The notes: generated by a model from the letters alone, not told the origin. A stretch of DNA of 64,000 nt from a virus (IMGVR_UViG_3300028591_000080:1-64000); one strand, 5' to 3'. Shown: positions 6,180 to 61,966, counted from the stretch's first letter. Numbers and translations are program-made.

Positions 6180-8429
6180 TTATACGTAATCATTATAAGG
6201 GTCTGTTAATTTTTTACAATTAGTTATAGTAATAAAACCACCATTTATATAATTATAAATGTCTATAGGCGTTCCACCACTACTTGTAATATAGAAAAAT
6301 ATACCACTATTATTTATATCTAAGCATATTCTATAACTAGTACTTAGTGTTTTAAACCATACACTACTCCAGTTATTATAGTCAATAGTAATTGTAAATC
6401 TATCTGATAACGTAACATAGTCAACACCGGCCTCTGGGTGCGTTACTTGTTTAACTCCATATGAGAAACTCTTTACACGGTAAGTTAATGTTCCATCGAT
6501 TTCAATAATATTTCTTCCATAGATATCATCTCAATCTGAAGATGAATCCATACTACTTGTCGCTGGATAATTTATTCTAAATTCACGTAATATACTATTA
6601 ATTCCTACTGATGCAAAATATACATTATATCCATTAGAAGTGCCTTTTCTAAATTCATACATTTTTCCAAATCCTGGATACTTAAAGTATGGTTCATCAT
6701 GGTCAGCTGCTTTAAAAATTTTACCAGTTTTTCAAATACGTAATCCATTATTTATATCTATAAATCCTGTATTTGATACACTTGAAATAACATTTGTATA
6801 AAGTTGAGATTTTACAGTAATGTTTCTAGCACTTAAGCTTGTATTTACTGTTATCTCATCAGCATTAAAATATGGAGTATATAATAAAGTTTTATCGTTA
6901 TTTGTTACTTTTGTTGTTAAAGATGTCCAATTATAATAAGAACAAGAAGATGGATTTTCAACAAGATTTTTTATAAATCTAATTCCATCATATGCCACCA
7001 TTAACGAATTTTCTTCTGGATGATTTAAACCTGTAGCTGATGGACTAGAACTACTATTTTTAATTCGTATAAAATAATTTCCATCAACTTTATTAGTTGT
7101 TAAAGAGTCTGTTTTGACACTGTTTGCTGTTATTACATTTCCTTCTAAAGTATTATTAACTTTAACTTTATTTCCAGTCATTGTAACATTTTGTGGTATA
7201 GTTATTTGACTAGATGATAAAGTAATATATGTATTAGAATTTTGAGCATATAAATATTGAGGTAGCCAAATCTTATTATTAGTTGAAACTAAATTATAAC
7301 CTGTCGCATTTCATGTTGTTGTACATTTCTTTAGTTCGCCATTTTCAAGATAAATTGGTGTATAAGTATTACCAACATTAATACCACTACCTACTTCTTT
7401 AATCATACCATCTTCAACTTTTAATAATTTAACTCCAGAAATATTTATATCATAATTAGTATACGTTTTAGTCTCAGGATTATACACTTTTAATTGTTCT
7501 GCATAAATAGCATGACTTACACCTCTATCAGCATGAGAGATATTAGGTTTTATTTTATGATTATTATCGAAAGATAAATTAATATTAGTTCCATTATCTG
7601 AAACTGTATCAGTATTAATTACGTCATTATTAGTATGATAATTATGAACTGAACTGTCTGCGATTTTATCGGCTGTAACTGCATCATCTTTAATTTTTGC
7701 AGTTGTTATGTTTTGATTTTTAATTTTGTTTGTTGTAACGCTATCAGTAGCAAGTTTTGGTTCAGTTACATTTTCATCTTTAATTTTTTCAGTGATTACA
7801 CTATTAGTGTTTAATTTTTCAGTAGTAACATTTAAGTTTTTAATCTTATCTGTAGTTACAATTGCATTTTCTAGATCGATTTCTTTAATCTTTCCAAATA
7901 ATTTATCTTTATCTTGTCCTAAATCTAAATAATAATAGAAACTTTTATTTGTTGAGCTTTCTAAATCATTTCTAGATGTTAAGATAGCTAAACCATTAAA
8001 AATTGAATCACTACCACTTGTAATATCTAGTATTTCAGTATTAGGATTTTGTATTGTTGATGAAGAAACAAATGGTCTTAAAATTAATGTTTCTTGATCA
8101 TTTCCTAATGAAACAGGTTCCAATTTAATTCCTAACCAGCATGGTTTTAATTTTTGAGTACTAGTATTGAATAATTCTGTAGTTAATTCTTTAATTTTAA
8201 AGTAATATCCATGAATGAAGAATTCAAATGGTTGATTAAGTTTGACATCTTCTGGTTGAGTAATTATAAATGTATCTTTATTAATATATGAAGTTAATTT
8301 TTGGTTAGCTTCGGTATTAATAGAACTTTCTACATTATAAACATAATCTACAGAGTCTTTTGTAAATGTTCCTCTAAATGCTGTAGGATATACATCGATA
8401 TTTCCACTTTTAAAATAACTTATTGCCAT
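6180..8429 (-). CDS. Tail fibre / receptor-binding protein (749 aa, 3 TGA)
   Basis: Track ORFs 7311-8429 and 6732-7181 are in frame; TGA at 7311, 6732, 6531; 10-aa VTxxKI repeats; last gene of the baseplate module. Confidence 0.75.
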
Positions 8430-8431
8430 TC

Positions 8432-9010
8432 TTATTCTCCTTCATTAGTAGTTGGATTACTAATTTTCATTGTCCATTCAATTAAAAGATTATAATTACT
8501 ATTTTTATCTTCAAAATTTATTGGATCAAGTACTTCAGTTGTCTTACCATCAACAATTGTTGATTTTGTTAATAGATAATAAGCACTTGGATGTGAATCT
8601 AAATTTTCTGTTCCAGAGTAAATTGCAACTAAACTTAACCAATTTCCTAATAAATAAGAATATGGGATTGAAAATCTAAATGTTGCTTTATCTTCATCTA
8701 CTTGAACTAATGCATCTAAATATATAAAATCTGTTGAAACTGCTGTTCTAACATTATTACCATCACCATTTCAATCAAAATCTTTAGGATAAAATTTTGA
8801 ACTAGCTCGTCCAGCTATATCAAAAAGCTTAATCTTAGTTGGTCTTAGTATATTTGCTGCATTAAAATCTCCACCCAAGCATTTAGCGAAAAATCTAAAT
8901 AATGGTGAACAACCTTTATTATGATAATTTCTTGTGCTAATTAATTCTTTACCTTTATATTCACTTACCTTAATTGTACCTGAATATTCAAATAAACTAT
9001 TATTATTCAT
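8432..9010 (-). CDS. Baseplate-associated structural protein (192 aa, 1 TGA)
   Basis: Reads through TGA at 8771 to TAA at 8432; ends IEWTMKI. Confidence 0.65.
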
Positions 9011-9023
9011 AAATTCTCCTATA

Positions 9024-9746
9024 CTAATCTTCTTCTATATTTTCGTCTTTATAAAGTTCTTCAGAATGTGAATCATCAGACACTTTTCTACTTAAAGTAT
9101 TATTAGGACGTACAATATTAGTATTTGCTGAATATCCAGCTTTATCACTAATTAATTTAGCTTTAGAAATTGGGTTTTCACTTGTTCCAAAGTCACTAAT
9201 AATTCTAGCTGTCTCATTAGATCTAACTTTAGAAATTTTAATATTTTCTGTTAAATCATATTTTTGAACAACTTCAGATTTAGCTCTTGTTGTTTTGATT
9301 TTATTACAAGTTATACCTGCTGGTAAAACATATTCTAATAAATCATTAAATAAGTTTAAATCTGTTAATTCAATCGGAATATATAAATCTAGAGATAAAC
9401 CATCATCTGATATCTCAACCTCAAATGAATCGGTGATTCCTTCTGCATGAAGGATTGTATCACCGATTAATTGAATTGCAGTTAATGTTCCTTTATTTCT
9501 TAATATCTCAGTAAAAACTGAACATATTGCCATCAACTGATCTGTATTATACTTATGTTTTAGATTTAATCCTAATGTTAAAGCTAATAAATCTATAAAC
9601 ACAGTATTCTTTGATGGAATTAAATACATTAAATCTGCATTTGTTTTTAAATAATTTAGTACTACATCATATAGTCTTCCAATAAATTGGAAATCTCTAG
9701 ACTCATTATAATATATGCTTGGAGTTAAATCTTGAATTTTAATCAT
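9024..9746 (-). CDS. Baseplate wedge protein (P2 gpI / T4 gp7-like)
   Basis: RNKGTLTAI and YVLPAG motifs; follows the gp6-like gene. Confidence 0.7.
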   Translation of the reverse strand: MIKIQDLTPSIYYNESRDFQFIGRLYDVVLNYLKTNADLMYLIPSKNTVFIDLLALTLGLNLKHKYNTDQLMAICSVFTEILRNKGTLTAIQLIGDTILHAEGITDSFEVEISDDGLSLDLYIPIELTDLNLFNDLLEYVLPAGITCNKIKTTRAKSEVVQKYDLTENIKISKVRSNETARIISDFGTSENPISKAKLISDKAGYSANTNIVRPNNTLSRKVSDDSHSEELYKDENIEED

Positions 9747-9760: not shown

Positions 9761-12700
9761 TTAACGTTTAGAAGATGATTCTACTTGAACACCTTTGTCA
9801 ATTGAGTCTATATCGATTTCACCAACAACGAATTGATTATTAATATTATTTTTATCGAACCAAATATTAGCACTTTGTAAGCTTTCATATTGTCCGTTTG
9901 AATCTAACACTTCTGTATTAATATCAATAACATTATTATTATCAGTTGTTAAATTATAATAGAATTCATTATTAATATCTAATTTAGAAATATCTTTAAG
10001 TAATTGTTTACCAATGTCATCACCTATATTTGAATCAGTACTAGAAGTAATAAAATAATGAACCAAATCATAATTTATTCCAAAGCTATTTCTATTACCT
10101 GTTTTATCGCTTGTAGTAATAATACTTAAATCTGAAACAGTAATAACATCTGTACATTTTAATTTATAAGATGTATCTGATGCATTTTCTTTATATAGAT
10201 CTGGGAAAATTTGTATAAAGTTTTGATCTGATGTATAATTAACATAAATAATATTAATTCCAGGTTTTAGTTCATAATAATACGTATCTGTGTTATCTAA
10301 TTTAATAGTTTTATTTTTCCACCAAGTCATTGAAGTTGGAGTATAAGTTGCAGTTTCACCATAATAATTAAAAATCTTTGGACTATTTATATTAAATCTT
10401 ATACATGCATTTTGTTGATTTGGTTTATCAGATGGAGTTTTTGAATAATAAATCATAATTAATCCATATTGTTTATCCATTGGAATTAATGTATTTAATT
10501 TAACATAATCGTTATTTGGTTTAAATTCTAGATCTTGAGTAACTAATTTATAATTAAATAAATCACTAAATTTAAATTGAGTTAAATTAGATGATACATT
10601 ATGTAAAGATTGAGAAATTGTGCTATTTAAAGCAGTCTGTAATCCTTCAAGATAAGTTTGTTTTAATTTAAAATCTGTTAAATAAATATCCTCACCAGAG
10701 TCTGAGTCTGTTTGTTGAATTATTGTATATAAACTTCCATTTAAATTTCTAATTTCATAATTTGATTTTAGACTAGGTGCTTTACTATTATTATAAAATT
10801 TAGTAATTAATAATTTATTTGTATCTGTTGAACTACCATTAGATGAATAAGTATTTATAAATGTATCTATTAAATCTTTTAAATCAATTTTATCTGTAAT
10901 ATGTCTATTTATTAAAGTATTTAATTCATTAGTATTAATGGCATATGCAGTTATAAGATCTCCTGTACTAGATAATGTTTGAGTTAAATCAGGTCCACAA
11001 TTTAAAATATATTTTGCTGAAACTTCTCATTGATTAAAATTATCTGAGTCAATATTGAAATTTAATTTACTTAATTCTTTATATACACCATTACTATAAT
11101 AGCTTGTTATACTATTATTTTTTATTTTATACCAGTTTTTATCAATATAGCTTGAACCACCATATTCATAAGGACTGTCTTCTAAATCAATATTATTAAT
11201 ATAATCGCCTTCAATTAAATTTATATATTGATATTCAGTAAATACCATATAAGTTTTTATTCCAGTGCTTTCTCTTGAATTAAAATTAAATTTAACCCAA
11301 GGTACACTGTTTAAACCACTAGATAAAATTGTATCATTTGATACAGAATTATCTAAAATATAGTATACTCTATCGTTTTTATATGAAATATCTGTTTCTA
11401 TTGGAGTAGAAATATAATCATATATAGTCACTTTAGTACCATTTCCATAATATGCCATATCTAATTTATTTGCATCAGTGTAATAGATATATTCATTTTC
11501 TCCTAATAAATAAGAATAAGTGACTAATGAAATACCTCCACCTAATTCTTTTTTATTTCCATCGTAAGATAAACGTAATTGGTTTGAACTATTATTTAAA
11601 TTCCAATATAAGTATTCAGTACTTGAATCTAAGTATATATTTGAAATTTCTCTTATTTCTATTTTTTCATCTGTACCTAATGTAAACATTGAATAGATTT
11701 TTTTAGCTAATGTTACACCTTCATCTTCGAATGTAGCAGTAAAATCGACATCGGTTTTTGTAAATGTTTTATTAGAACCATCAGCATATTCTTGAGAGTC
11801 ATATACATCAAAATTAGGTTTAATAATAGTACCAGGACCATAATACTTAGTAATTATACTTTCTTTTTGTTCTTCAGTACTAGCTTCTGTACTATTTTCA
11901 GATTTAGTATAATTAATTAATAAAAATTCATCTGTTTGTAACTCGTAATCTGCATTCTTTCGTATACCACTAAAAACAATATCTTTACCTAGATTATAAT
12001 TATTACTTGGTCCAGCTCCAGTTGGATCTTGAATATAATAGTTAGAAAAGTTTCCATTAGTTGCTGCGAAATTTAATAATCCATATTTATACTTTGTACT
12101 ATCAATTAGATAACCTGGAATATTATCTTTATTTGATCCAAGTCCTTTATAAATTCCAGAAAAATTTGGTGATGTTGGTGGTAAAATAGAACGACCTGAA
12201 ATTTTGTTTTTTAAAGCATTAAAATTCTTTCTACCACTTTCGGTATTATAACTTATATCCAAAATGAAATAAGAAGTTGTTTCTGACCAACCTTCTCCAT
12301 CAAGAGGTACAACTTTAAATTTAGTATTTGATGTTTTCTTAAATACTACATTTGTATTATCTCTTAAATATTTATTGAATTGATCTTGTCCGAATAAATC
12401 TGTTATATCATACTCATCAATATTAAATTCTAATGGTAAATAGTTATCAGTTAAGTATTTTCTTAAAGATATAAACTTAGCTGGTTGAGCATATTCAGTA
12501 GAACTACCTGCATGTCTTAATTGTATAAAATAGTTTACATAAGCTGGATATGTTAATAAAGTTCTTAAATTTTTTGATCTAAATTGAATTACTTGACCAT
12601 TAGTTAATTTAGCTGGTGTTAATTTATCTCCAGTTTTAATTTTATATTTAGTTTCAGTGTCTAATTTAACTAAAGAAAATGAAGTCTCAGATGTTCTGCT

Positions 12701-14539
12701 TGGAAAAATTGGATCGAACTGGTTAAAACGTGTTTCTGTAAATGCAGATTTAAATTCAGTATCATAATTAAATAGAGGAACTTTACCAGCTAAAATATTT
12801 CTTAAAGCTAATTTATTATAAATTTTTCTTGCTGTTTGTTCTACATCGGATAGATTCTTAAATAAATTTACACTTTGTGTTGTAGAAAAAGTATTTCCAA
12901 GAACATATTCAGTATTATCTGCTAATAAGAATTTTGTTATCATAGCTGGTTCAAATAAGTTTATGTTTTTAATACGTTTATCTGCACCAGTCATTACTTC
13001 TAAAATTGTATCATAAGGAATTTCTTCACCAAAGTCTATATTGTGTAGATTAAATGCTTCATAAATAGCAATTTTAATATTATTAATAATTACTTTTTGC
13101 TCAGCTTGATTTACTTTTGAAGTTGTTGTAATTAAAGCTTTTAATTGTAAATAATTTTTAATTGCAACTATATCAGCTTTAATATCATTATCACTACTTT
13201 GATCTATAGTTTTCTCAACTTCTGGTAATTTAATTTTATGAGTTAAAGTTTTTATATTTTTAATTTTATTTTGAATATCACTTAATACACTTCTATCTAA
13301 TTGGAATGAACTTAGATATTCAGCTTTAGTATTTAAGTTACTAATATGTTTAAATGGATATAAAGTTAATGTAAAATTATCCATTGTAGCATTAGGTACT
13401 GTAGTTTGTTTATAACAAATTCCGTAATCATTAAAAGTACATAAAGTAATAGAATTATTAATATCAGTATTAATATCTGAAACAACGCTATTTGAAACTA
13501 AATTAAAACCATTTTCGTCTGTTAATTGATAGATTTTATTCATATAATCTCTACAAGTAACTAAAGTATCAAAAGTACCAATTGTCTTTTTATAATTAAT
13601 GTATGCTTGTCTAATAGTTTCAACATTATTTCCATTTGTTGCAGAAGATGGGTTTATAACAGTATAATTTTCTAATGAGTTATCTAAGTTTTCAGATAAA
13701 GAAGATGGTAAGGTCATAAATGTACTTATTTCTCTTGAAGTAATATTACCATTAACTCCTGAAGTTCTTGTATAATAAATTTCAAGACCATCTTCAATAA
13801 TTGAATCGATATCTTCTGGGAATTCAATATAAGGTTTAGCTAGTTTAGAATTAAATCCAAACTTATAAATCTTACTCTTAGCTTTTTGAGAATTTAAATT
13901 TGAAACTTGAGTTCAACGTTCACTCTTATTTCCATCATTTACATTATAAACAAAAATACCATTTTCAGCGATTTGAGTTTCTTTGAAATAATATCTATTT
14001 TGATCATCTAATTGATAAATTGAAATTATATTATCGTTATCTGATTCACATTGTTCTATTTGTCCTTCCATACAACGAATAGTTACACCAGAAGTATTTT
14101 GAGATAAATACTTACTCTCAATAGAGAAATAGTTTATTGATTTATCACTATTTGTAAATGTTGTAAACATTGGAATTTCATATAAACTTTGTTTCCACTC
14201 TTCTTGCCCATTATAATAAACAGTTATATCAGTTATAGCTGAATTATAATATTTGATACTATATCCCATCATTTCACATAGTTTTTGCATACTTTCTAAT
14301 TGAGAAGCTGATGGCATGAATGCTTCTAGAGCAGTTATATCTTGTTCGTAATTAATTTTATCAGCGATTGCAGTTAAAACTTTTAATAAAATAATTCCTG
14401 GATCTGATTCATTTGTAGTTGTAGGATCCCATCTTAAAGATAATTTTTTAGCAGTATCTAATAATTCATTTCAAATTTGGTAAAAGTCTTTAGCAGTAGG
14501 TGATAAAGATACGGCTTCAATATCAGTTTTATTTATCAT
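9761..14539 (-). CDS. Large baseplate wedge protein (T4 gp6 / gpJ-like, 1592 aa, 3 TGA)
   Basis: One frame across track ORFs 13913, 11027, 9761; TGA at 14471, 13913, 11027; ESDPG, MGY, ER(W)TQV, TSGVNGN, VTCRDY motifs. Confidence 0.85.
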
Positions 14540-14548: not shown

Positions 14549-14938
14549 CTAGTTGTTATTATTATCTGAATTTGTTGTTAAAACTAACTTATAAGTATCA
14601 TTTGTAAAATCTATTTGATTTATACCATGAACTTCTGCAATAATTTTTCCATTTTCTTGAGTAACTTTTATATCTTCTCTTCTAATTCTTAATTGAGGAA
14701 TAAAAATAGCTAATTGTTCATAGACTATATCTGTAAATATTTCCAAAGTCATAGGCGAATTTTGTTCAAACATTAATGGATCAATAAGTCCACCTCAAAA
14801 TGGATCACCTATAAGTGAATTTCTTTCACTACTTAATACAAGTCTTGCATTTTGTCTTGTCGCTTCTTTATATTCAGTAGATTTTCAAATATTAGAACTG
14901 TTCGTATTAAACATTGTTGGAAATTTAAATGAACGCAT
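14549..14938 (-). CDS. Baseplate wedge / sheath initiator (T4 gp25 / gpW-like, 2 TGA)
   Basis: MRSFKFP start with RBS; LIGDPF(W)GG; FIPQL; TGA at 14885, 14795. Confidence 0.8.
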
Positions 14939-16014: not shown

Positions 16015-17331
16015 TTAAATATTTATATCTGGATCTCCATCGATCTTAGTTAATTCTAATGTAGTTTTATATCCTGCACCACTTATAGAATCTTTTTGGC
16101 TTGTTATTATATATAATCCAGAAGAAATATGTTTGTGTCCGCCAGGGAATATAACATTTAATCTTAAATAAGACATTAATACTGCCGGTCTTAACAATCC
16201 TTGAATTGTTATGGTTGCTTTAATTGGATATTTAGTAATTTTTGTCCACCAAGAACGATCCTCAGGTCGAACTTTAAACATTTCATTTTTTGAAGTTAAA
16301 CCAGGAGATAAAACATCTTCCCATACTCCATTTCCATTTAATCTTCTAACATACTTTTCTTGAGTTAATTCGCCTTGATAGTCATAATAAATTGAATAGT
16401 TTTGATTATTATTAAGACTAAATTGTGAAACTAAAGTCGAAGTATTATATCCAATATCAACATTATAAGCATCTGAATGATTTCCTAAGTGAGTAGTCTT
16501 AGTTACTTTAAAATATGGTCCTGATGCTAATAAATCATTAGCGGTTCCAGATGTTTCATATGCTTGATCATATATTGTTTCGTCATGAATTGTTAAAATT
16601 CATATAGCATTACTTCTATCTCCAGCGACGGAGCCATCTGGTATCATACAACTTACTAAATAAGAGATATAATCCATTACTGAAATATTTATTTTAGATT
16701 CGATTTCTACAGCTTGATCACCACCATCAATTAATTTATCTAAATTATCAATAGTCATTCCTCTAAATATTTTTTGAAGGCCTGTTGAACTATCTTTAAA
16801 TAAATCTTTAATTAAATCACTTGGTTTATGTAGACTACCGTCATTAATTCTAGTGATTGAACCAGAAAATCCTAAAGTTGAAACAGATGTTGCACTTACT
16901 GTGTAATTTATTGTTGATGTTTCTAATGAAAAAGTTGTTGTAATGTTTGTAATAATAGCTTCTTCGTCTTTATAAATAGAATTTGGCATTGCAATATTTC
17001 CATAAGAGAAGACAATTCTACGTGAATTACTTACACTAGAGAAAACTTTTTCAAAAAAGTTTGGATCATCATTTACAGTAACTGGATATGCAATTTGTAA
17101 AGTATATTGATTTACTTGACCATTAATTTTTGTTATATCTAGTCTTTGAACATAATTTGGATAAACTACATCGAAGTTTTCATAGAATCCATCAATATTT
17201 TTTGTTGATTTATTTCTAGAATAAACTCCAAAAGTATAATTTCCTATTGTAACTTTTATCCAAGGAATTTGGATCCTATTATAATCAGATAATAAACTAT
17301 ATCTTTGTTGTGAAAAGTTTAACTTTGCCAT
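16015..17331 (-). CDS. Baseplate hub protein (gp27/gpD-like, 1 TGA)
   Basis: Read-through at 16600 joins two ORFs; C-terminal SGLYIITSQKDSISGAGYKTTLEL. Confidence 0.7.
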
Positions 17332-17657
17332 TATCTATCAGCTCCAAATTTTACACTAGATAAGCTTGGAATTTTAATTAAATCAAAATGATCTGTTAAT
17401 TTAATGAATGGATCCATAATATCATTAAAATAACCAATTATTCACCATAAAGTTGGATTTGCATAATATTTTAGTGCTAGATAATCTAAAGTATCAGTTT
17501 CTTTTAATTTATGTGAATAAAATGAAACTGATTTATCCATTGCACTACCAATACCATAAACATTTTTACCAGTTTGTGTATCATAATAAAATGGAACAGT
17601 TGTATATCTACTAACATAATTATAATCTTTATATTGTTTATTTTTTAATCTGTCCAT
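17331..17657 (-). CDS. LysM-like baseplate protein (gp53/gpX-like, 1 TGA)
   Basis: DTLDYLALKYYANPTLW(W)IIGYFN.I.DP...IKIP; TGA at 17442 supplies the second W. Confidence 0.85.
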
Positions 17658-17672
17658 AATTATCTCCAATCA

Positions 17673-18336: not shown

Positions 18337-19818
18337 CTATTCTTCTGAGTATATATCTACACCAGAAATACTTGTTGTGATAACTTCACCATCTTCATTT
18401 TTTGATTTATGAGTATAATATTTTTCAGCATACTTGTCTACATATCCAAGAGTGTCTAGTAAAATTGAACTTAAATCATATTGTTTACTATTCTCTTTTT
18501 GATATTCTATAGATGCTAAATCTGTTATTTTATCATAAACGGCTCGTTGATATCTATTTCTCCATAATCCTAAAGGTGAACCATGTTCATCTATTTCTAT
18601 TGGATTATTATTTAATCTTAAAACTGTTTCTACACGTTTTACATTATCATGTATTTCATCTTTATCATGAATTACGTTTCCTAAAAAATATTCAACAAGT
18701 TTATCTGCGAATGGATAACTTATCTTAGTATTTAAGCTTAATAATTGTAATCTAGAAATTGGAGTGAATTTACTATTATCTGAAAAATTTTCATAATTAG
18801 TTACATACTTATTTTGAGTAAAGACATAATTATTATTTCCAGTTCTTTTTTTAAAACTATAATCATTCCAACCAGTATAATCTCCTTCTAAGATTACTAT
18901 TGATGAAGTTAGATCGCTTGGAACCTTTAAAAATAATTTTAAATCTTTTTCCATTAATGCTAATTCAGTATCAATATAGTTTTTTGAACCATAAGTTCTT
19001 AAAACTTCAGTGTTTAAATTTTCACTTAATAATTTATCAAAAACTATTGGTTGGTTAAAATTCATAGTATTTAATTTTAGATATGTTGATGGAGATAATG
19101 GAATAAATTTATCTCTTGTATCTAAATAATTTCCAAAAATACCACAACACATTTCAATAACATTTGGACTATCGATTGCAATAGTATATTTTTTAAATAA
19201 TCGTACTGGAATCATATAAATCTTACAATGAGAATCTGTAGTATCAAATGAAATTAATTCAGAACTTTTTTGAACATTTACAGTTCTTTTTGGATCATTA
19301 TTAAGTGAAAAGTCTGTTTCATAATTTACCTTTACAAAATTTAATTTTAAATGACTTACAAGTCTATTATTAAAACAATTATATAAAGACATTAAGTCTA
19401 TATTATTATAATCTCTTTGAAATCTTAAGAAATCACCTAAATATTCATGAGTATAAGAATCATAAACGTTTGAGTTTAAAACTAAATTTCGTGTATGATT
19501 TAAATCTAATTTATTGTATGCAAATGGTCTATTTTCATATCTAATTCAATTAATACTTCCATCTGGTTGTTGAACACAATATTGAATATATCCATCTTTT
19601 ATATATTCAATATATTTAGTATTTTCATGATATAATTTTCCATCACTATTTTTAACTATAGTTCTAAATATATCTTTTTCATTTTCTTTTTCATATAAGT
19701 GTTCTTGATGATAATCATAATTTTCTTTAGTATAAACACGGTAATTTGGTAAATGGAAAGAATTTAAATATTGTTTTAAATATCCAGTAAAAATGTGTTT
19801 ATTATCAAATATGAACAT
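18337..19818 (-). CDS. Structural protein of unknown function (493 aa, 1 TGA)
   Basis: In-frame fusion across TGA at 19546. Confidence 0.65.
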
Positions 19819-19833: not shown

Positions 19834-22158
19834 TTAACCATGTATTGTATCTCTTACCCAGCTTAAAGTTGAATTTGCTTCGTCTTTTACTGCAAATGTT
19901 AACGCTCCATTTGTTACATCTTCTAATAATTGATAAATACGTAATACGCTATCATTAACATCTTCAATAGTTACTTCAGTATTTTCTTCTTTAGCTTGAG
20001 CTAATTTATTATTAGAATCTTCATCTGCATCACTTAATGTTTTATTCTTAACATCACTTCCACTTGCGTTTCCAACATAACCAGAAGAAGATTTTTGAAC
20101 TCCACGTTCTCCAAGTCCTAAATTACCATCACCTCTAGTAACAGTTGTTAAATTAGAGCTAATTCCTAATTTATTTAACATAGCAGTTCCACTAAAACTA
20201 CTTCCTAATCCACTTACAATAGAACCAATACCAGATAGTACTCCACCACTTAATGCTGCAACTCTCATAATATCTGCAACAGTTGTTTGTAAGTTAACAC
20301 CAGTACCCATAAATTTAATATCTGGTAATGCAATACCACCTACAACGTCATCTAATAAACCAGCTGATTTATATATTGCATAAGTTACTGGGTTATTAGC
20401 GATATTAGCACCTAAAGTATATTTAAAGTTATCTCATCCGTTTTCTAGCATTTCACCAATGTTCATTCTGTTTTGAATAGAACCAGCCATAGTCATTAAA
20501 TTATCAACCATACTATCATAACTTAATTGTCCAGAAATAGACTTTTTAGCTTTAGTATCATTAGCTAAACTTGCAATGGCTTTTAAATCTGATGCAGTAA
20601 CACCGTATAATTGAGCTAATTGTTGTTGAATAACACGACTATCTTTAGATTGATTATAAATATCTCCTAAATATTCAACAACTTGTTCTAATAAATTACT
20701 TGTTTGATCACTATTTAAACCACTAGATAACATATCGCTAACAGATAAACCAGCTCTATTTGCTGCCATAATTAATAGATTACCAGCACCGCCAGAAGTA
20801 ATACCTTCTAGATTACCTGATAAGATTTGTCCTAATGCTTTTGAAATACTTTGAACATTATTAGCACCAACAGAATACATTGATCCTAACCATTTTTGAA
20901 CTGTATATTCAAATTCAGTTGCTTCAGCTGCATTTGATAATGCTTCTACTTCATATAGATCAGATCTAATATTCTTAGCTAAATCGGTCATATATTCAGT
21001 AGTTTGATACATATTATTCAAGAATGCATTTAATGCGGCTTCCATACCAAGTCTACCAGCTGTAGTATCTTGCTGTTGAATACGAATTAATTTTGTTAAT
21101 GTCGCATCATTTGCATCGAATGTTGTAGCAATTTTATCTTTAATAGTATTTAAGAATGCTCTTTGTTCTACATTATAAGCGATACCTTTGCTAACCATAT
21201 CTTTGATATTAGTTACAATATCACTCATCTTTACAAATGGAGATACAGCTGCAATACTAGTTACATCAGAACTAATTTTTTTCCAAATTGATCCGCTCTT
21301 GGTTTCTAAATTAGATCCATATAATCTTGTATCTATTTGAGACTGCATGTTTGCAGTAGTTGTTATAGAATTATCAAGTTGTTTAACAAAATTTCCAAGT
21401 GCATGAGTTAACCCATCTAAAACTTTTCCAATACCATGTCGTCTTTGATCACCTTTACTTTCACCTTCAGCTTCTAAGTCATCTATTGCTTCTTGTTTAA
21501 GTCTCTTTCTTTCTTCTCTAAATTCTTTACTAAAGATACTAGTTAATCTAGCACCCATAGAATTTGTTTGCTTTAATCTATCATAAGCATCTTTTTTCTT
21601 TTTAGTAGATTCTAATCGTTTATCTCTATCCTCTTGTTCTTTTGCTGTTTTCTTAATTAGTTCTTTTTGTTGTTTAAATTCTTCTTTTATTGCTTCTTGT
21701 TTTTCTTTCTTTTTCTTTTCAAGTGCTTCAGCTTCTAAAGCGTTTACAGTTTGAGCAATTTCGATTCTCTTATCGAATTCTTGATTTATAGCGTCCATTC
21801 GCTCTTCGAATTCAACTTGAGACCATATCTTTTTTTGTTCATACAGTTTTCTTATTGCTTTTTGTTCAGCTGCATCAGCTTTAGCATCATTTTCTTTTCT
21901 TAATTGTAATAAATAATTAAGTTGATCAGATTCTTTATTATAAGCCTTTTTTCTCTGTTCTTCTTTATATTCAATAATACTTTTTATACTATTTAATTGA
22001 GTCTGTAAACGACTAAGTTCCCAAGCTTCATCTTCATTATAAACTTGTTTAGCTTGTTTCTTTATATCTTCGATAGCTTCTTTAGTCTCTTTAATTTCTT
22101 CTCTTAAGTCATGTTTAAGAGGTATACTATTTAATGATGTTAAATCTTTTATAGCCAT
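19834..22158 (-). CDS. Tape-measure-like protein (774 aa, 1 TGA)
   Basis: Coiled-coil N-terminus, Ala/Gly-rich helical C-terminus; follows tube and chaperone; TGA at 20434. Confidence 0.7.
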
Positions 22159-22187
22159 AAATGACTCCAATCAAATCAAATATCAGT

Positions 22188-26583: not shown

Positions 26584-26585
26584 TA

Positions 26586-26921
26586 TTATTCTCCTTTTCA
26601 ATCAAAAGCTTTTGTTAAAATACTACTACCTTTTAATAATCCATTTCCAAATGTAATTAATCTAGCTAACTGATCTAGTTTTGGATCTGAAATAAAGACA
26701 GTATATTCTAATGGAGTCATACGCTCAATTTTACTTTTATATATAATTAATAAACAGATATCACGTAATTTTAATTCATATTTTTCTTTAAGTAATTTAT
26801 TCAATTGTCTTTCTGTATCTTTAAAATCACAACTTAAAACATGTTGAATAGCATAATAACGTATTTTATGCTTAATTGTCTGTTCATTACATGGTTTATT
26901 TAAGACTATTGAAAAATGCAT
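26586..26921 (-). CDS. Hypothetical neck-region protein (1 TGA near the C-terminus)
   Basis: Track ORF ends at TGA 26598; read-through adds WKGE before TAA. Confidence 0.6.
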
Positions 26922-28439: not shown

Positions 28440-28504
28440 ATTAAACACCTTTCTTAAAAATAATGGACTGGATGACCAAGATTAGCCAGCCAATCCATTA
28501 CTAA

Positions 28505-37824: not shown

Positions 37825-37867
37825 GAACTTACCTCCATTACATATCATTAATCAATTTGATTACAAA

Positions 37868-43220: not shown

Positions 43221-43272
43221 AATATTCTCCAATCTGGATATATTATATATTATATATATAATACAATATTAA

Positions 43273-44805: not shown

Positions 44806-44924
44806 ATAATTCTCCACTAGACATCAAAAATTTACGCTCAGGAAGCGTTTTAATGTTTATTTGAATATTCATATATAAACGGTAAAAAACGCATTTTTAC
44901 GTAATAAAATATTAATCGATCAGA

Positions 44925-45662: not shown

Positions 45663-47012
45663 TTAGTTTTCTAAATTTTCTAATGATAGTTCTTTAGATA
45701 ATACTTCGTTTTTTAAATCTTTTAATTTATCTAAATAACCTCTATTTCTAAATTCTTTAAAACATAAATTTTCTAAAGAATATTCACCATTTTCATCACT
45801 CATACCTTTTTTACGTTCTTCATAGATATCTGTAATTAGCTGTTCAATTTCTTCAACAGATGGATTTTCAAGAATTTCTTTATATCTATTTTCATAAGGT
45901 TTAACTAATTCTTCAACTTGATCGAAATCTATATCTGGAATCTTAGCTTGAACTGGGTGAACAATCCAATCATTATCTTTTACAGAATAAATACCATTAC
46001 TTCTTAATGGAGTATCATCTGTTTCAACATAAACTTCAACTGGAATTCCATAGAAACTAATGTCCATCTTTCTATTAAATAAAGATTTATAAGCACCATA
46101 TAATAATGGATATAAATCGTCTGGACAATCTAAATCATCAGTATTAGCAATAATATGAATATCTAAATCTGAGTCTTTAGTATAATTATAACTTACATTA
46201 GAACCAACTAAAATAATATCTTCAACATCAATCTTAATTCCATCTTCTTCTAGATCAGATAAAAAATATTCAACAATTAAATTAATTTTATCTAAAACTT
46301 CATCTTTTAATTTTTCATCTTCATTAAATAATTTTGGATTTAATGTTTCATGTTTTTCAATATCTTCATCTAATTGGTCTGATTTACCTTCCAATTGATC
46401 AGTCATGAATTTATGATTTTCTTGTCATTCATCTTCACTAAAATCAACTTTATAATCAAACATTAAAGACTTAATTTGATATAAATATAAATTAAATAAA
46501 TTTAATAGCGATTCTTTTACGCTATCATCTTGAGTTGTCTCAATTTGTTTTCTTAATCCATATAATTTTGATTTAGCATTATTTTTGTCAATAAAAATTA
46601 AATCTTCATTTAATTTATCATTTAATTCATCGTGATCTTTTGGATTAAATAATGTTATTTCAACATCAAATACATCATCGATAGTATCTAAAGAAAAATC
46701 AGTAGCAACTGGAGCTCAACCAGTATTTTCTTCTAATTCTTTAAATATTACACTTAAATCTTTAAAATAATTAGACCAAGTACCACAGCCATTTAAACCA
46801 CCACCAAGTCTAAATACATAGCGCTCAGTTTCGTGGTCTACAGTTCCTGGCTCACCTTTTTCTTTATAATATTTAATAGAATCTTCATCATATAAAACAT
46901 AGTTAGAAGTTTTTTTTGCAGTTGGAGTTTTTAATTTTAATATTTCTTTTTTAATTTTCTCGATATTATCTTCTGGAGCGAGCTCTTCAAATAAATTTCT
47001 GAAAATATCCAT
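45663..47012 (-). CDS. Multidomain protein with C-terminal pol-beta-type nucleotidyltransferase (449 aa, 2 TGA)
   Basis: GSNVSYNYTKDSDLDIH, PVEVYVE; TGA at 46716, 46425 joins two track ORFs. Confidence 0.8.
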
Positions 47013-49037: not shown

Positions 49038-51155
49038 TTAATCTAATGAATATTGTTTATTCCAAAGTGCACCATGTAAGTACTTACATAACTTGTCTGA
49101 ACTATCTCCACCTTTCCATACCCAGAAGACAGCACCTTCTAGTTCAAGAGTTGGATAACTTGTTTTTTCATAATCTTGTAAATCACTATCTGTTACAATC
49201 ATAACATTAGTAAATGTACTATTTCTAATTTGTGTGTATATTTCTGGCCAAGCGCTAGTTCCACCACTACCTTCATTTTTTGGAGTATCGTAAACTGAAC
49301 TATCGAAATATTTATACTCTAAATCTAGAAGTCCATCATCTTGATAAGCTTTTAATCCAGAACATAAAGCTCGTGCTTTATCAAAGTCTTCTTTATGCCA
49401 AGAACCAGATTGGTCAATATAAACTCTCATATATGGTTTCTTATCATCAAGTCTACGTTTATCTTGGTGACCTTTTCTAATCATATTATTATCTTCAGCA
49501 TGTCTATTCATAATTCTATATGATTTTATAGAAAGCTTATACTTTTCTACTTGCATTCCGATAAGTTTTTCGATATCACGTTTTAATTCAGCTGCAGTAT
49601 AAACTGCTTGATATGCATCAGCTGAATTAGACTTCTTTTGAGCACCAGAGTTCTTAATAATTTCTTTTTCTTCTTGATCGATTTCCATATTAGCAAATGG
49701 ATCATTATTTAAAGCTGTTACTACAGAACCTCTCTTCTCTAAATCTTTACTTATAGAGATTTGTAATATTTGACTTAGATCATTAATTCCTTGAAGAAGA
49801 ATATCTTCAACTTTATCTGAATCCTCATATACATGATTTTCAGCATCTTTTAAATCTTCTAAATCTTTCTTTAATCTATCTTTAGTTGATTTATCTAGTT
49901 TCTTATCAAATTTATTATTTTCTAAAACTTTTGAAATATGCTTTTGAAGTCTGTTTATTCTTCTCAATCTATCTTTAGCTTTAGCTTCATTTTTTTCACT
50001 AGGTAATTCTAGAGTATCATCATCTGCTGAATTGTCTTTTGGTGTATTTTCTTTTTCTTTATCGTTTGACTTTTCACCATTTTGATCTTGTGGATCTTTA
50101 TTAGCTTTTGAATCTGAAGATTTATTATCTTTATCTGATTTATTTTTATCTGATTTTGTTTGACTAGACTTATTATCGCTGTCGTTACCTACTTCAAAAT
50201 TATTTTCGTCACTATCAGATCCTGCCTGATGTTCTTTAGAATCTTGATCAGAGTCTGAACTACTATCTGAACTACTTTGACTACTTGAAGAAGAATCTCC
50301 ACTTTGATCTTCTGAATCATCTGAGTCTTTAGAATCACCATTCTTTCCTTTTTGATTTTGGTTATCATCTGAATTATCTTCAGAATCTTCACCATCATCT
50401 AATCCACCAAATTCATTATCATTATCTTCATCACCTAAATCATCTAAATCCAAATCATCAATGTCAGTATTATCTAGGTCGTCTAAATCATCCAAATCGT
50501 CCTTATTTTGATTTTTACCTTTACCATTAGAATTATTATCTTGGTCCTCTAAATCGTCTAAATCTGAGTCATCTAGGTTATCTAAATCTGAATCATCAAA
50601 GTCATCTAGATCGTCTAAATCGTCTAGATCGTTTCCGTTTCTATTCTTTGGAGGCTTTCTATTATTTGAATTGTCAAGATTATCTAAATCATCTTCATCT
50701 TCAAAGTCACCACCATCATCTGATCCGCCATTATTTTCATCTGATTGATCATCTTTTTTATTCTTTTTATTCTTTGATTGACTGCTACCACTATTTCCAC
50801 CATTATTGCTGTCATCATCGTCGTCATCATCATTTTCTTCTTTAGATGGAGTATCACCAAGGTCGATTTGTTTTTGTTTTTTCATTAAGTCTTCTGGATC
50901 ATCAAAATCCATCGACATTCCAGCTCCACTTTGATTATCTGGACTTAATACTGGTAAGTCAGGATCTATCTCCATTGGTGGTAAATCATCTGGCATTGGA
51001 GGCATTGCACCTCCACTAGCACCTTCCATACCATCACCTTTAGGTTGCTTTTTTTGTAATATTTGAACTAATGCATCTGCATATCCTTGTAATGCATCAA
51101 AAGTTCCAACTGTTGCTTCGTTATCTACTTTCTTTAATAAATCATCTTTTTTCAT
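49038..51155 (-). CDS. vWA (MIDAS) domain protein with long acidic linker
   Basis: YIDQSGS, GGTS, IVTDSD; long D/N/S-rich region. Confidence 0.85.
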   Translation of the reverse strand: MKKDDLLKKVDNEATVGTFDALQGYADALVQILQKKQPKGDGMEGASGGAMPPMPDDLPPMEIDPDLPVLSPDNQSGAGMSMDFDDPEDLMKKQKQIDLGDTPSKEENDDDDDDDSNNGGNSGSSQSKNKKNKKDDQSDENNGGSDDGGDFEDEDDLDNLDNSNNRKPPKNRNGNDLDDLDDLDDFDDSDLDNLDDSDLDDLEDQDNNSNGKGKNQNKDDLDDLDDLDNTDIDDLDLDDLGDEDNDNEFGGLDDGEDSEDNSDDNQNQKGKNGDSKDSDDSEDQSGDSSSSSQSSSDSSSDSDQDSKEHQAGSDSDENNFEVGNDSDNKSSQTKSDKNKSDKDNKSSDSKANKDPQDQNGEKSNDKEKENTPKDNSADDDTLELPSEKNEAKAKDRLRRINRLQKHISKVLENNKFDKKLDKSTKDRLKKDLEDLKDAENHVYEDSDKVEDILLQGINDLSQILQISISKDLEKRGSVVTALNNDPFANMEIDQEEKEIIKNSGAQKKSNSADAYQAVYTAAELKRDIEKLIGMQVEKYKLSIKSYRIMNRHAEDNNMIRKGHQDKRRLDDKKPYMRVYIDQSGSWHKEDFDKARALCSGLKAYQDDGLLDLEYKYFDSSVYDTPKNEGSGGTSAWPEIYTQIRNSTFTNVMIVTDSDLQDYEKTSYPTLELEGAVFWVWKGGDSSDKLCKYLHGALWNKQYSLD

Positions 51156-52387
51156 TAAATAGCTCCATATCTCATCTCATAGTCTTCTTTAGAAAGAGTT
51201 CCATAAGAAGTTTTATTTGCAATAACATTTGATGCAGCGATTCGATTTAAAATCTCTTCTAAATCTTTTGAAGAAAGATTCTTATAAATATCTTTAACGT
51301 TATTCATAATTTCATTATAAGCATTCTTATATTCTTGAGTGTGGAATTTTCTTTGAACGTCTACAACAGGTTTTTCAGCGATATTACCTAATAAGTATTT
51401 AATAATAGATGCAGTAATAGATTTTTGTTCTGGAGAAGTAATATAGATTTTTTCTGATTTACCATCAACTAAAATTTCTCCAAAATATAATTTATCTGTT
51501 AATTTAGACTCACCAATTTTTCTTAAAGCACTTTTTAATTGGTCATCTGACTTATCCTTTAATACCTCAAGAATTCTATTTATAATAATTTGTGTTCTTC
51601 TATATTTTACACCTAATGAACGATAATATTTTGATTTCTTTATTTGTTCAATACCATGAGCTCCAGATTTATCTTTTGTACCAAATGTTGATGTTGGAGC
51701 ATCAATTCTAGCATAAGATGAATTTTTAAAATAAGATCTATCTATCATGTTTTTTGGAGCTGCATTTTTAATATTATTAAGTACGTTTTGTCTAACTTGT
51801 TCTAACTCTTGTAAACTTTTTTCATACATTTCTTCAAGAGTTAATTTCATCCAAGATTCTCTATGGTCTTCTGTAACTAATCCGCTAATAGTTTTACCAT
51901 TTAAAACCATATAACGAACAGTATTTTTATCGATCTGTGAATATCTAAAATTAGAAATTTCATCATCCATAATTATATTTAAAAAATCTTGAAACGAATT
52001 ACTATTTGCTAAGTCTTTTCAAGAATTAGTACCTTTAACTTTTTTTGCACTTGCATTAAGTTTATTAATCATTCTTAATTGATGCATCATTAGATTATGA
52101 GATAATTCATGTCTAAGAAGTACATCTAATTGGTCAAAAGTTTGAGGATTCGTTAAGAATCCTCTACTTATGTAAATGACTGGTTTTGTTACATCTGTTG
52201 AAATTGCAGCAGTAAAATCTGGATCATCTTGAATTTCAACGATATTTAAATCATAATAAAGTAAACGTTTAGCAAACTTACTATGTTTTTTATTAATTAA
52301 TAATTTAATTATCTGATTTTTCCAAGTTTTTTCTTCTTGAGTCATATAATCAGTTGCAGATTCACGTAGATTATTAAGTTTATGCAT
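51155..52387 (-). CDS. HExxH metallopeptidase (DUF2201 N-terminal-like, 410 aa, 1 TGA)
   Basis: FTAA, LLRHELSH, then NIIMDDEISN after read-through at 52019. Confidence 0.8.
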
Positions 52388-57691: not shown

Positions 57692-58546
57692 TTAATGTCT
57701 CCTAGACTTTTTACCAACAAAATCATTAAATGATTTAGCTCTATATGCACGCTTAGTCATTATTTCTTGTCTCTTAGCTGCTTTAGCTCTTTGATATCCT
57801 TCAATATCAACATAACTTGTTAGACCTAATTTAACTCTTTCGTCTAATTTAAATCTACGAAGAATAAGTCTTGTTGTTTCTTCAATTCCACTATCTTCTG
57901 AATCTGCAAACTTATCAACTATTGAAGTATAAATTTCACACATCTTAGATAGAGCTTCAGAAACTTCTTCTAATGAATTCTCTTCAACCTCAGATTTTTC
58001 AAATATAAATCCACCACCAGAATAAGTTGCATCAATTAACATAGGAATAACTTCTGGAGTTACTTTTTCTTGTTCAAAATCATGGTTGAAAATTTCACCT
58101 GGAATAATACCATCTAATAAATTATATTGACGCATAAATTCACAAGCAACTTCATTTAATAATTGATTATCTTCATATTTTAAATCTTCATTATAATAAA
58201 TGATTTTAATTTCTTTTGGTCTACAAATATATACAAACTTATCTGTATCAAGATAAGGTTCAAAATTTACAATCTTATCACTTGAGATATTTGTAACTAG
58301 AGGATTTAAGAAAATTTTAATTTTATCATTAAAACGAATAGCAAAGATTCTTTTATTTATTCCTAATTGAGGAGCAGAAACTGATAATAAATCTTTTCTT
58401 TCTTCTAAAGTCTTAATTAACTTTTCTTTAGCTTCATCAAATTCTGCTGTTCCTTCTGGATCAAATCCTAATTTATTTTCATCTAAAACTAAGATCGGTT
58501 CTGATGGAACAGAAAGTTTGGAAATATCTCTAATTAATTCTTCCAT
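57692..58546 (-). CDS. Peptide deformylase-like protein, catalytically degenerate
   Basis: SVSAPQLGINKRIF, FLNP, EPYL, RPKEI, FMRQYNLLDGI. Confidence 0.75.
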   Translation of the reverse strand: MEELIRDISKLSVPSEPILVLDENKLGFDPEGTAEFDEAKEKLIKTLEERKDLLSVSAPQLGINKRIFAIRFNDKIKIFLNPLVTNISSDKIVNFEPYLDTDKFVYICRPKEIKIIYYNEDLKYEDNQLLNEVACEFMRQYNLLDGIIPGEIFNHDFEQEKVTPEVIPMLIDATYSGGGFIFEKSEVEENSLEEVSEALSKMCEIYTSIVDKFADSEDSGIEETTRLILRRFKLDERVKLGLTSYVDIEGYQRAKAAKRQEIMTKRAYRAKSFNDFVGKKSRRH

Positions 58547-58942: not shown

Positions 58943-58954
58943 AATAATTCCTTT

Positions 58955-59323
58955 CTAATTTAAAGCTTTAAATAATTTTCCAATCTGAGGTATTTCCTCA
59001 ATAATTATATCAAAGTCGTCTTCAACAACTGTTTCTAATTCTTTTTTTGGATCGTTAATAAAGCTAGATATTGCTGCATAAATTTTTTGTTCATTAAATT
59101 TCATTGAACCATATTTTATATTGAATCCATATTTAGTAGGTAGATCTGGTTTATCTACAAAAACTGGACCAAAAGTTAAATAATGAAATTTTCCTCTAAT
59201 AGTTTTGGCACACATAAATCATTGTAAGAATAAATTATTTGTACAACGAATTGCAAAATTACCACAATCGTCTAATTCAAGCATATCTTCAAATGAAGAA
59301 GTACCTTTATAACCTATTAGCAT
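58955..59323 (-). CDS. Hypothetical protein (122 aa, 1 TGA)
   Basis: ATG coupled to the upstream TAA; TGA at 59219. Confidence 0.65.
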
Positions 59324-60178: not shown

Positions 60179-60180
60179 AA

Positions 60181-60513: not shown

Positions 60514-60524
60514 GGATTTTCTCC

Positions 60525-60785
60525 TTAATCTAAATATTTCATAATCTTTATTGGATCTACACCTTTAACATTCCATAAAGATCTTTCAGTTTCTTTTTCT
60601 AAATTATCTAACATAAAATTTAATTTATGTTGAATACATCTTCCAATTATATCTTGTTCATCGAATTTATCTGAAAAAATACTATTTATAAATAATAATC
60701 TTGTTTTAAAATTTCTATTTTCTTCTAGAAATTTAGGAGACTCCCAATCGATTCTATCTACCATGATTCTTAAGTGACTCCTCAT
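60525..60785 (-). CDS. Hypothetical protein
   Basis: ORF overlapping the upstream gene. Confidence 0.55.
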   Translation of the reverse strand: MRSHLRIMVDRIDWESPKFLEENRNFKTRLLFINSIFSDKFDEQDIIGRCIQHKLNFMLDNLEKETERSLWNVKGVDPIKIMKYLD

Positions 60786-61158
60786 CGATATTATATTCTT
60801 TAATAATTGGAATAATTTTTAAATATAAATCAAGTATTTTTTCTTTTTCTTTATCATCTTTTACATTTAATTGTCTTTGTGCATCTACTAAAGATTGACC
60901 TTCAAGATTAATATATTGATATAATAATAATGCATTTGTTAATTCTTTAAATTCTTCTTCAGTAGGAATTTTAATTGTTTGACCTGCAAAATATGCTAAA
61001 AGTCTAGTTAAATTATTTCCATCTAATAAAAAACATAATCTACTTAATGTTGCATATTCTGGAACTTCTTCTACTTTAAATAATATAAACATCATTAAAG
61101 TATAAATATCTGATAAGTGTAATTTATCTAAATTAGCTTTAATCAAGCTCTTCTTCAT
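60754..61158 (-). CDS. Mor/C-like transcription regulator (tentative)
   Basis: LLDGNNLTRLLAYFAGQTIKIP resembles the Mor-family F.G..I.IP motif. Confidence 0.45.
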   Translation of the reverse strand: MKKSLIKANLDKLHLSDIYTLMMFILFKVEEVPEYATLSRLCFLLDGNNLTRLLAYFAGQTIKIPTEEEFKELTNALLLYQYINLEGQSLVDAQRQLNVKDDKEKEKILDLYLKIIPIIKEYNIDEESLKNHGR

Positions 61159-61966
61159 AAGTGCCCTCCGGATTTGAAATCATTTTAGTTAAGATTGATT
61201 CATCAACTCTATCCATTTCGAAACAATCTAAGATTAATCTCTTTAATTTAATAAAGAATTCATTAATTAATACTCTAACATATTCAGAAAGAGATTTTGG
61301 TAAATGTCATAACGTTACCGAAACACCTTGTTGAAGCGGAACTAATTTATTTCTTTTTTCTAATATATTACGTGTATTTAATAAAATTGAAATTTTTATA
61401 TTTCTCCAATCCGATGAATCTTTTCTAAATGGTGTTGTTTTTAAAAGTTCATCGATTAGATAATCACATTGTTTAATTGATTCTGTAATTGTTGTAATTG
61501 TTTTTGAATAATTTTGAGCCCGAGCATCGGATAATAATTGTTGTTTAAATTGAAATGGATCAAAATTATTATCATTCATTTCTTCAGATAAGACCTGTCT
61601 AAATGATTGATCTTGATATTCAACTCGTCTATTGTGTAATGTTCCTTTTACATAATCTAGAATATTAACAATAGGACCAATTATTCTTCCTTTAACTGAT
61701 TTTCCACGATTATTTCAATTCTTAATTAATTGGAAATAATAGAATGAAGCTGCATGGAAGGCAAACCCATCATAGTCTGAGAAATTTACAAACATATGTT
61801 TTTTAATTGCAAGCATCTTAGTTAATAACCACAAATAATTATAAACTAGATCCTCATCTTTAGGGTATTTTCCTTTATTTTCAGCAATTCTTGGGATAAC
61901 TCCACTTTTATCTATTCATATACACATGTCACAATAAGACATACCTGTGGGTTTTTTCCATAACAT
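61139..61966 (-). CDS. Candidate late sigma factor (T4 gp55-like, 275 aa, 3 TGA)
   Basis: AGGAG RBS; TGA at 61916, 61715, 61307; LWLLTKMLAIKKHMFVNFSDYD...NILDYVK resembles gp55 region 2; next to the gp46-like gene. Confidence 0.5.

Follow-up and report, generated by a model that had tools for sequence, protein, structure and literature searches.

We analysed the first 64 kb (64,000 nucleotides, hereafter the window) of IMGVR_UViG_3300028591_000080, a complete viral genome of 230,252 bp from the IMG/VR database (28% GC, CheckV completeness 100%), in which the codon TGA very probably encodes tryptophan (Trp, W). The genome is that of a T4-like myovirus, with genes for portal, gp23 capsid, sheath, tube, baseplate and terminase, and the minus strand holds nearly all genes of the window. 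Sample labels of the closest contigs, taken as they read, suggest ruminant gut metagenomes. Under the standard code many of the window genes are split at TGA, and the phage carries a single tRNA able to read this codon, tRNA(UCA), whose unusual extra arm is described below.

In-frame TGA codons in the window

Open reading frames (ORFs) were called under translation tables 11 and 4, and their codons were then counted. Between 6180 and 61966, 22 minus-strand table-4 ORFs contain 42 in-frame TGAs, and these ORFs terminate with TAA (17) or TAG (5). They are listed below with their length in amino acids (aa), the first base of each TGA on the minus strand, and what relatives (sampled as described in the next section; L155 is a close one) carry at the same positions.

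6180-8429 (-), tail-fibre-like protein, 749 aa: TGA at 7313, 6734 and 6533; L155 codons TGG, TCA and TGG; protein columns W 4/5, S 3/5 and W 3/3
8432-9010 (-), 192-aa protein: TGA at 8773; the same codon is TGA in L155
9761-14539 (-), 1592-aa virion-module protein: TGA at 14473, 13915 and 11029; relatives TGG or TGA at all three
14549-14938 (-), 129-aa protein: TGA at 14887 and 14797; relatives W/TGA, and W/TGA/F
16015-17331 (-), 438-aa protein: TGA at 16602; relatives TGA 1, Tyr 1
17331-17669 (-), 112-aa protein: TGA at 17444; relatives W 2/2
18337-19818 (-), 493-aa protein: TGA at 19548; relatives W 2, TGA 1
19834-22179 (-), 781-aa protein: TGA at 22173 (codon 3, start uncertain) and 20436; site 582 W 3/3
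24195-25775 (-), tail sheath, 526 aa (Pfam Phage_sheath_1C): TGA at 24935 and 24896; variable columns I/L and N/W
25858-26601 (-), 247-aa protein: TGA at 26526 and 26049; site 185 W 4/8, site 26 variable
26586-26921 (-), 111-aa protein: TGA at 26600, three codons ahead of TAA; relatives W 2, TGA 1, Q 1
26896-27864 (-), 322-aa protein: all six Trp codons are TGA (27795, 27714, 27579, 27270, 27204, 27051); relatives W/TGA at four sites, K or Y at two
27864-28448 (-), 194-aa protein: TGA at 28190 and 28058; site 87 Gly 13, W 2; site 131 variable
28505-32632 (-), 1375-aa protein: TGA at 29512; variable column
35845-37848 (-), prohead-protease-like protein, 667 aa, syntenic with Peptidase_S77 genes of relatives: TGA at 37419; column P 42, L 11
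39026-41089 (-), T4-type portal, 687 aa (Pfam Portal_T4, 1e-31, aligned across the TGA): TGA at 40765
41106-43232 (-), large terminase, 708 aa (PHROG 2 and 9): TGA at 42992, 42218, 41906 and 41378, hence 4/9 Trp codons; W/TGA at two sites, Y/W/F at one, I/L at one
43273-44817 (-), 514-aa protein: TGA at 43722; relatives W 30, TGA 9, F 2
45663-47012 (-), 449-aa protein: TGA at 46718 and 46427; site 99 W 3/5, site 196 variable
51155-52387 (-), 410-aa protein: TGA at 52021; column Tyr 8/8
58955-59323 (-), 122-aa protein without aligned homologue: TGA at 59221, supported by ORF continuity
61139-61966 (-), 275-aa protein: TGA at 61918, 61717 and 61309; columns Y 83/W 24/F 12, K/R, and W 65/Y 36/F 24

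An earlier note on this DNA had reported about 41 internal TGAs in 22 genes, with splits at TGA only and rebuilt genes ending in TAA or TAG. The count and the splitting pattern are both borne out, with one TGA more than estimated, and the four peptide contexts it quoted are exact, each falling at a TGA site: YYANPTLW-X-II (residue 76 of 17331-17669), KDQADAVCGAV-X and FPY-X (residues 619 and 81 of 41106-43232) and ER-X-TQV (residue 209 of 9761-14539). Two of the 42 codons are borderline. The true start of 19834-22179 may lie downstream of its TGA, which is codon 3, and the TGA of 26586-26921 is codon 108 of 111; the latter is taken as sense because relatives show TGG or TGA there and the alignment extends past the codon.

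Read-through was assessed as the length of open frame following the stop of each table-11 ORF of at least 80 aa. On the minus strand of the window, the median is 192 open codons after TGA (n=21) versus 6 after TAA or TAG (n=44; Mann-Whitney p = 8e-8), and over the whole genome 83.5 versus 6 (p = 2e-11), so that the TGA-interrupted frames are beyond chance. Genome-wide, the 293 ORFs of this set end in TAA (191), TAG (60) or TGA (42), and those ended by TGA continue for tens to hundreds of codons, except for about five sense-strand cases; one such short extension falls in the window, at 26600, where the codon is sense in relatives. TGA is essentially unused as a terminator, even in genes without internal TGA.

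Recalling genes with table 4 rather than table 11, a check proposed in the earlier note, increases greedy ORF coverage from 0.83 to 0.92 in the window and from 0.83 to 0.90 in the genome. Coverage alone is a weak test, because treating TAA as sense also increases it in the window (0.89); we read this gain as read-through noise of an AT-rich sequence, because no frame requires TAA as sense. With TAG as sense the window coverage is 0.82, and neither TAG nor TAA is supported as a sense codon. The independently assembled IMG/VR contig L001 (5.5 kb, 99% protein identity) covers six of the sites and shows TGA at every one, and the window TGAs are not assembly errors, since the independent assemblies L001, L008 and L155 carry the same TGAs. 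Within genes, TGA positions look uniform by inspection, and the base that follows is T in 16% of cases after TGA versus 25% after TGG, a mild shift.

The amino acid read at TGA

Relatives were collected by homologue searches with the portal, sheath, fibre and 275-aa proteins, together with their contigs and 80 IMG/VR loci around portal homologues; a single-protein locus search had returned one near-identical contig only, and the alignment-based search was used for wider relatives. The subject codon opposite each window TGA was read by tblastn, giving 538 cells over 34 sites. TGG dominates with 262 cells, followed by TGA (73), Tyr (49), Ile (49), Leu (45), Pro (44) and Phe (30). Columns dominated by Gly, Cys or Ser, the outcome that the earlier note had named as speaking against Trp, were not found: Ser accounts for 2 cells, Cys for 1 and Gly for 14, of which 13 are at site 87 of 27864-28448, the sole Gly-rich TGA column. 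Control columns under the TGG codons of the window look alike (W 643, Y 134, F 85, TGA 69).

In a Codetta-style likelihood, with a substitution profile per residue taken from the same alignments, W ranks first, with a lead of 655 nats when every cell is counted and of 54 nats when sites are weighted equally. Adding L155 and two extra protein families brings the sites with at least one homologue to 41 of 42, and the plurality is W or TGA at 24 of these and tied at one more; Tyr or Phe leads at 4 sites and some other residue at 12. The clearest column is that of the portal, where 120 of 120 homologous proteins have W, encoded at the DNA level by TGG (63) or TGA (15).

Close relatives exchange the two codons. 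Opposite the window TGAs, L008 (93% protein identity, 4346 codons) has TGA 11 times, TGG 8 times and TTA once, and L155 (90% identity) has TGA 4 times, TGG 4 times and TCA once. The fraction of sites that differ between synonyms in close relatives is 0.20 for TGA/TGG, compared with 0.11 for AAA/AAG and 0.06 for GAA/GAG; TGA and TGG are thus swapped at synonymous-codon rates or above, and TGA therefore behaves as a synonym of TGG. An identical 678-aa portal protein is encoded with TGG in L002 (9247-11283) and with TGA in L003 (1746-3782) at the invariant Trp column, a very recent flip between the two codons.

Further away, many loci with portals 42-51% identical show TGA read-through (e.g. L005, L011, L021, L026 and L049), others in that range (L015, L023, L046 and L050) show none, with an occasional TGA stop, and more distant portal relatives use TGA stops freely. 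Such a mix of codes among relatives is the pattern reported by Borges et al. (10.1101/2021.08.26.457843), in which the code has changed repeatedly and recently. Taken together, the homologue columns, the likelihood and the TGA/TGG exchange support the proposal of the earlier note that this phage uses code 4, and we hold with high confidence, from these comparisons of sequences, that TGA is a sense codon for tryptophan in this phage.

The suppressor tRNA and its extra arm

The RNA genes around the candidate decoder, and one further RNA gene elsewhere in the genome, are as follows.

2900-2995 (-), tRNA(UCA), 96 nucleotides (nt) with encoded CCA (ARAGORN; Rfam tRNA, 57.6 bits)
1356-1973 (-), full-length ROOL RNA (Rfam RF03087, 252 bits, E = 2e-56), between the tRNA array and tRNA(UCA)
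1-913 (-), tRNA array: Pro (cut by the contig start), Phe x2, Val, Ser(UGA), Asn and Ala
genome 228755-229128 (L127:4754-5128, -), tmRNA (Rfam RF00023, 86 bits), for which ARAGORN gives a 24-residue tag ending in AALA

The tRNA(UCA) gene lies in a TGA-free block adjoining the array and the ROOL RNA, and tRNA-Trp(CCA) is absent from the whole genome. No domains of release factors RF1/RF2 (RF-1, PCRF) or of tryptophanyl-tRNA synthetase (TrpRS; class-Ib synthetase) were found in the genome. The host would therefore have to charge this tRNA, and termination at UGA would simply be outcompeted. The presence of a ribosome-rescue tmRNA in a phage that makes ribosomes pass UGA may merit attention.

The acceptor of tRNA(UCA) reads A1-U72, G2-C71, G3-C70, G4-C69 and G5-C68, followed by G73, which is the identity set of the bacterial Trp acceptor (PMC9976931). 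Compared with bacterial tRNA-Trp (PMC9976931), the phage tRNA thus shares the full acceptor identity set, as well as the loop context CU-NCA-AA, but differs by U34 instead of C34 and by a variable arm of 26 nt instead of 4-5 nt, whose loop repeats UCCAAA. The anticodon is thus UCA in place of C34-C35-A36, and CCA is present instead in the anticodon-like loop of the variable arm. ARAGORN labels the molecule a selenocysteine tRNA (tRNA-SeC), an assignment ruled out by its 7-bp acceptor stem, 5-bp T stem and 4-bp D stem; the true tRNA-SeC genes compared have the 8/5 form and a 6-bp D stem.

The variable region, 26 nt long, folds into a stem capped by the loop GUCCAAA. IMG/VR was scanned with the 17-nt anticodon arm only, which gave 25 UCA tRNAs, and at least 16 of them combine a Trp-type acceptor with an extra arm made of a 5-bp stem and the loop (C/G)UCCAAA, the anticodon loop of tRNA-Trp(CCA), with the caution that genuine tRNA-SeC genes may carry UCCAAA by chance when selected for it. 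In an alignment of 15 UCA tRNAs, chosen by their anticodon arm alone, all five arm pairs show compensatory changes and U-C-C-A-A is invariant, a pattern that argues for a real and conserved extra arm. The syntenic UCA tRNA of L155 (L155:12050-12148, +) is 78% identical, keeps UCCAAA and has lost most of the arm pairing, and it was missed by ARAGORN. Suppressors were detected in only 35% of code-4 phages (10.1101/2021.08.26.457843), and diverged tRNAs such as that of L155 may contribute to this low detection.

When 185,579 species genomes were scanned by pattern for UCA tRNAs with two loops, most matches were genuine tRNA-SeC genes that meet TCCAAA by ascertainment. Only four were of the Trp type; their bins carry the labels Coriobacteriia (2), Treponema and Bacilli, and they probably represent phage contigs binned with these genomes. 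The flanks of the other two-armed tRNAs are mostly TGA-poor, as here, and neither prove nor disprove recoding there. A full-text literature search found no paper describing a decoy anticodon arm.

TGA usage across the genome and its interpretation

The 228 genes of at least 100 aa contain 117 TGA versus 605 TGG codons, with at least one TGA in 57 genes; TGA thus makes up 16% of Trp codons in the genome and 26% in the window (42 TGA versus 118 TGG, 26 of 48 genes being TGA-free). Its use is heterogeneous between genes (chi-square 250, 84 degrees of freedom, p = 2e-18). The recoding had been called genome-wide in the earlier note, which holds as to compatibility, since TGA ends practically no gene of the 230-kb genome, with the nuance that only 57 of 228 genes have it in frame.

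Portal, terminase, sheath and fibre genes carry TGA. TGA-free genes include those for SNF2 helicase, topoisomerase, deformylase, NrdD, DNA and RNA ligases and NAPRTase. The highest TGA shares are found outside the window. An AT-rich island (23% GC; genome 104214-111393, L121:214-7393, -) has 30 TGA versus 5 TGG, unlike the rest of the genome. It encodes a UDP-glucose-dehydrogenase-like protein as well as three radical-SAM proteins, and may differ in origin or have been under code 4 for longer. A GIY-YIG homing endonuclease and an SprT-like protein (genome 182742-183224 and 206370-207179) each have 4 TGA and no TGG, as would be expected of mobile genes circulating among code-4 phages.

The motif TGCTAAATT occurs 35 times, 33 of them on the minus (main gene) strand and mostly 18-140 nt upstream of starts (e.g. 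window 3047-3038, 25827 and 37877, -). It precedes structural genes and NrdD alike and is likely a phage promoter element. Both TGCTAAATT and a second strand-biased, promoter-like motif, TTGTATTAT, precede the suppressor tRNA.

Other genes were recognised in addition to those listed above, and lysis genes were not identified among them. The 1375-aa protein of 28505-32632 has no tblastn match in the GenBank phage collection. Further features are:

34381-35808, gp23-type capsid protein
57692-58546 (-), phage-encoded peptide deformylase homologue, TGA-free
window, DNA-metabolism genes: SNF2 helicase, topoisomerase, SbcC/gp46-like ATPase
gp19-like tube and T4 baseplate protein
genome 92634-99386 (L120:8634-15386, -), 2250-aa protein with collagen triple-helix repeats, 21 TGG and 1 TGA

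We propose that the host TrpRS would charge the phage tRNA(UCA), with the CCA-loop copy in the extra arm possibly preserving TrpRS recognition despite U34, and that the charged tRNA would compete with host RF2 at UGA. Under the AT pressure of a 28%-GC genome, transitions from TGG to TGA would accumulate by drift at sites that tolerate read-through, and TGAs would be purged from genes that work before, or without, the suppressor. Such purging would account for the presence of TGA in virion, packaging and some accessory genes and its absence from DNA-metabolism genes. The TGA pattern and its modest 16% share suggest that the host uses the standard code and that the code is switched in the course of infection, in line with the published model for recoded phages.

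The best-surviving alternative, which we consider improbable, is that the phage shares the native code 4 of a Mycoplasmatota-like host, with no switch and with tRNA(UCA) as a mere supplement. This would agree with the low GC content, with the near absence of TGA stops even from TGA-free genes, with islands where TGA makes up 86-100% of Trp codons as in native code-4 genomes, and with the fact that no RF or TrpRS gene would be needed. AT-rich native code-4 genomes, however, use mostly TGA for Trp, and here TGA is limited to 16% at 28% GC, is missing from 171 of 228 genes and varies between genes (p = 2e-18) in a way that tracks function. We also know of no jumbo T4-like phages of Mollicutes, the portal relatives L015, L023, L046 and L050 (42-48% identity) lack in-frame TGA and use TGA stops, and the CCA-loop copy best fits a charging enzyme that expects CCA. 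In addition, the hosts predicted for such phages in the published survey are Firmicutes or Bacteroidetes with the standard code (10.1101/2021.08.26.457843).

That TGA encodes another residue, namely Gly (code 25, as in Absconditabacteria phages), Cys, selenocysteine, or Ser via the long arm, is far less probable still. The SeC label given by ARAGORN to a tRNA with a UCA anticodon and a long arm, the resemblance of this arm and G73 to a SerRS signature, the Gly-rich column of 27864-28448 (site 87: G 13, W 2), the TCA found at one site in L155 and an Absconditibacteriota cluster in the NrdD feature search can be cited for it. They are outweighed by the columns (14 Gly, 2 Ser and 1 Cys in 538 cells, W being ahead by more than 650 nats), by an exchange at 90-99% identity that is between TGA and TGG and not with GGN, TGY or TCN, and by the 7/5 acceptor/T-arm layout and 4-bp D stem, which are unlike bacterial tRNA-SeC. 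The absence of any recoding, with the TGAs put down to faulty assembly, to mutations that turn genes of a decaying genome into pseudogenes, or to rare leaky stops, has next to no chance of being correct, as nothing specific speaks for it, frames are interrupted by TGA only and never by TAA or TAG, the same TGAs recur in the independent assemblies L001, L008 and L155, the essential portal, terminase and sheath would all be broken, and the downstream frames stay open for hundreds of codons, with the Pfam portal model aligning across the TGA.

Several observations weigh against TGA-to-Trp recoding by a phage suppressor, with a switch during infection of a standard-code host. Of the 41 sites with a homologue, 12 fall in variable columns, relatives having non-aromatic residues there (P, I/L, K, G, S, E, N, T); these sites neither favour nor contradict Trp. 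The tail tube gene has no TGA for 6 TGG, so that a late gene is unrecoded, and conversely non-structural genes such as the radical-SAM island and the GIY-YIG endonuclease are TGA-rich. As to timing, the TGA share downstream of TGCTAAATT and TTGTATTAT (19% and 20% versus 16% in the genome) shows no association and lends the timing model no support. The charging of tRNA(UCA) with Trp is suggested by identity elements only, and its long variable arm with G73 is also the SerRS signature. Finally, the NrdD feature search for a host gave mixed taxa (Bacillota, Absconditibacteriota, which is a code-25 phylum, and viruses) and is unusable for this purpose.

One TGA-bearing gene may relate to late transcription. 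The 275-aa protein of 61139-61966 adjoins an SbcC/gp46-like gene and belongs to a family of 372 relatives without Pfam or PHROG name, and it has no match in Pfam, PHROGs, a PDB profile search or Foldseek. Its structural model has a pLDDT (predicted local distance difference test) of 89.9, and the N-terminal domain resembles sigma region 2. VIA-align pairs it with the T4 gp55 chain 7d7d_F at Z 7.5, values of Z <8 being common for helical bundles, and residues 4-125 match more than ten sigma region-2 domains at Z 5-7.3, within the noise range of helical bundles. A T4 gp55-like late sigma factor is, on this model, a lead only.

We tentatively suggest, at somewhat less than even chances, that tRNA(UCA) is two-headed, its UCA arm reading the codon while the variable arm would show CCA to TrpRS, and that the switch would gate assembly and perhaps late transcription, because the terminase (4 TGA), the portal and the sigma-region-2-like protein (3 TGA) need read-through.

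Phage recoding of TGA to Trp is already known, and the present phage is a clean further example: code-4 phages of human and animal guts have been published in the Jade and Agate clades and among some crAss-like phages (10.1101/2021.08.26.457843). As in those phages, TGA aligns with Trp, a TGA suppressor tRNA is phage-borne, the recoded modules are scattered through a large genome, recoding seems to favour virion genes over most replication genes, and close relatives differ in code or sites. The present phage differs in lacking the RF1 and TrpRS of the 'code change module' of two Jade genomes, and in that its TGA-richest genes are non-structural (radical-SAM/sugar island, homing endonuclease).

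Like Mycoplasma and Spiroplasma with their native code 4, the present phage would read UGA as Trp with a UCA-anticodon tRNA and does not use UGA as terminator, but TGA is here a minority codon (16%) absent from three quarters of the genes, and the decoder is phage-borne with a 26-nt extra arm; RF2 loss accompanies native code 4. The reassignment of a stop, putatively in late genes, and the phage suppressor tRNA are shared with TAG-to-Gln (code 15) phages such as Lak and crAss-like phages, for a different codon and amino acid. Metaproteomics has validated code 15 only, TGA-to-Trp being mentioned as predicted (PMC9523058). Our searches of the literature found no protein-level confirmation of TGA-to-Trp in phages, the basis there being sequence inference, and the invariant portal Trp column offers a ready target peptide for such confirmation.

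The standard code fragments 22 window genes, including portal, terminase, sheath and fibre, and the annotation, host range and taxonomy of this phage and of many rumen and gut relatives therefore need table 4. The genome is a good test bed, being complete, with one suppressor tRNA but neither a release factor nor a synthetase gene, with site-by-site TGA/TGG flux in close relatives and with gene classes ranging from 0% to 100% TGA. How the phage opal suppressor is charged is a question raised in 10.1101/2021.08.26.457843, and the two-armed suppressor tRNA makes it testable; if true, the two-headed tRNA would explain how an opal suppressor is charged without a phage synthetase.

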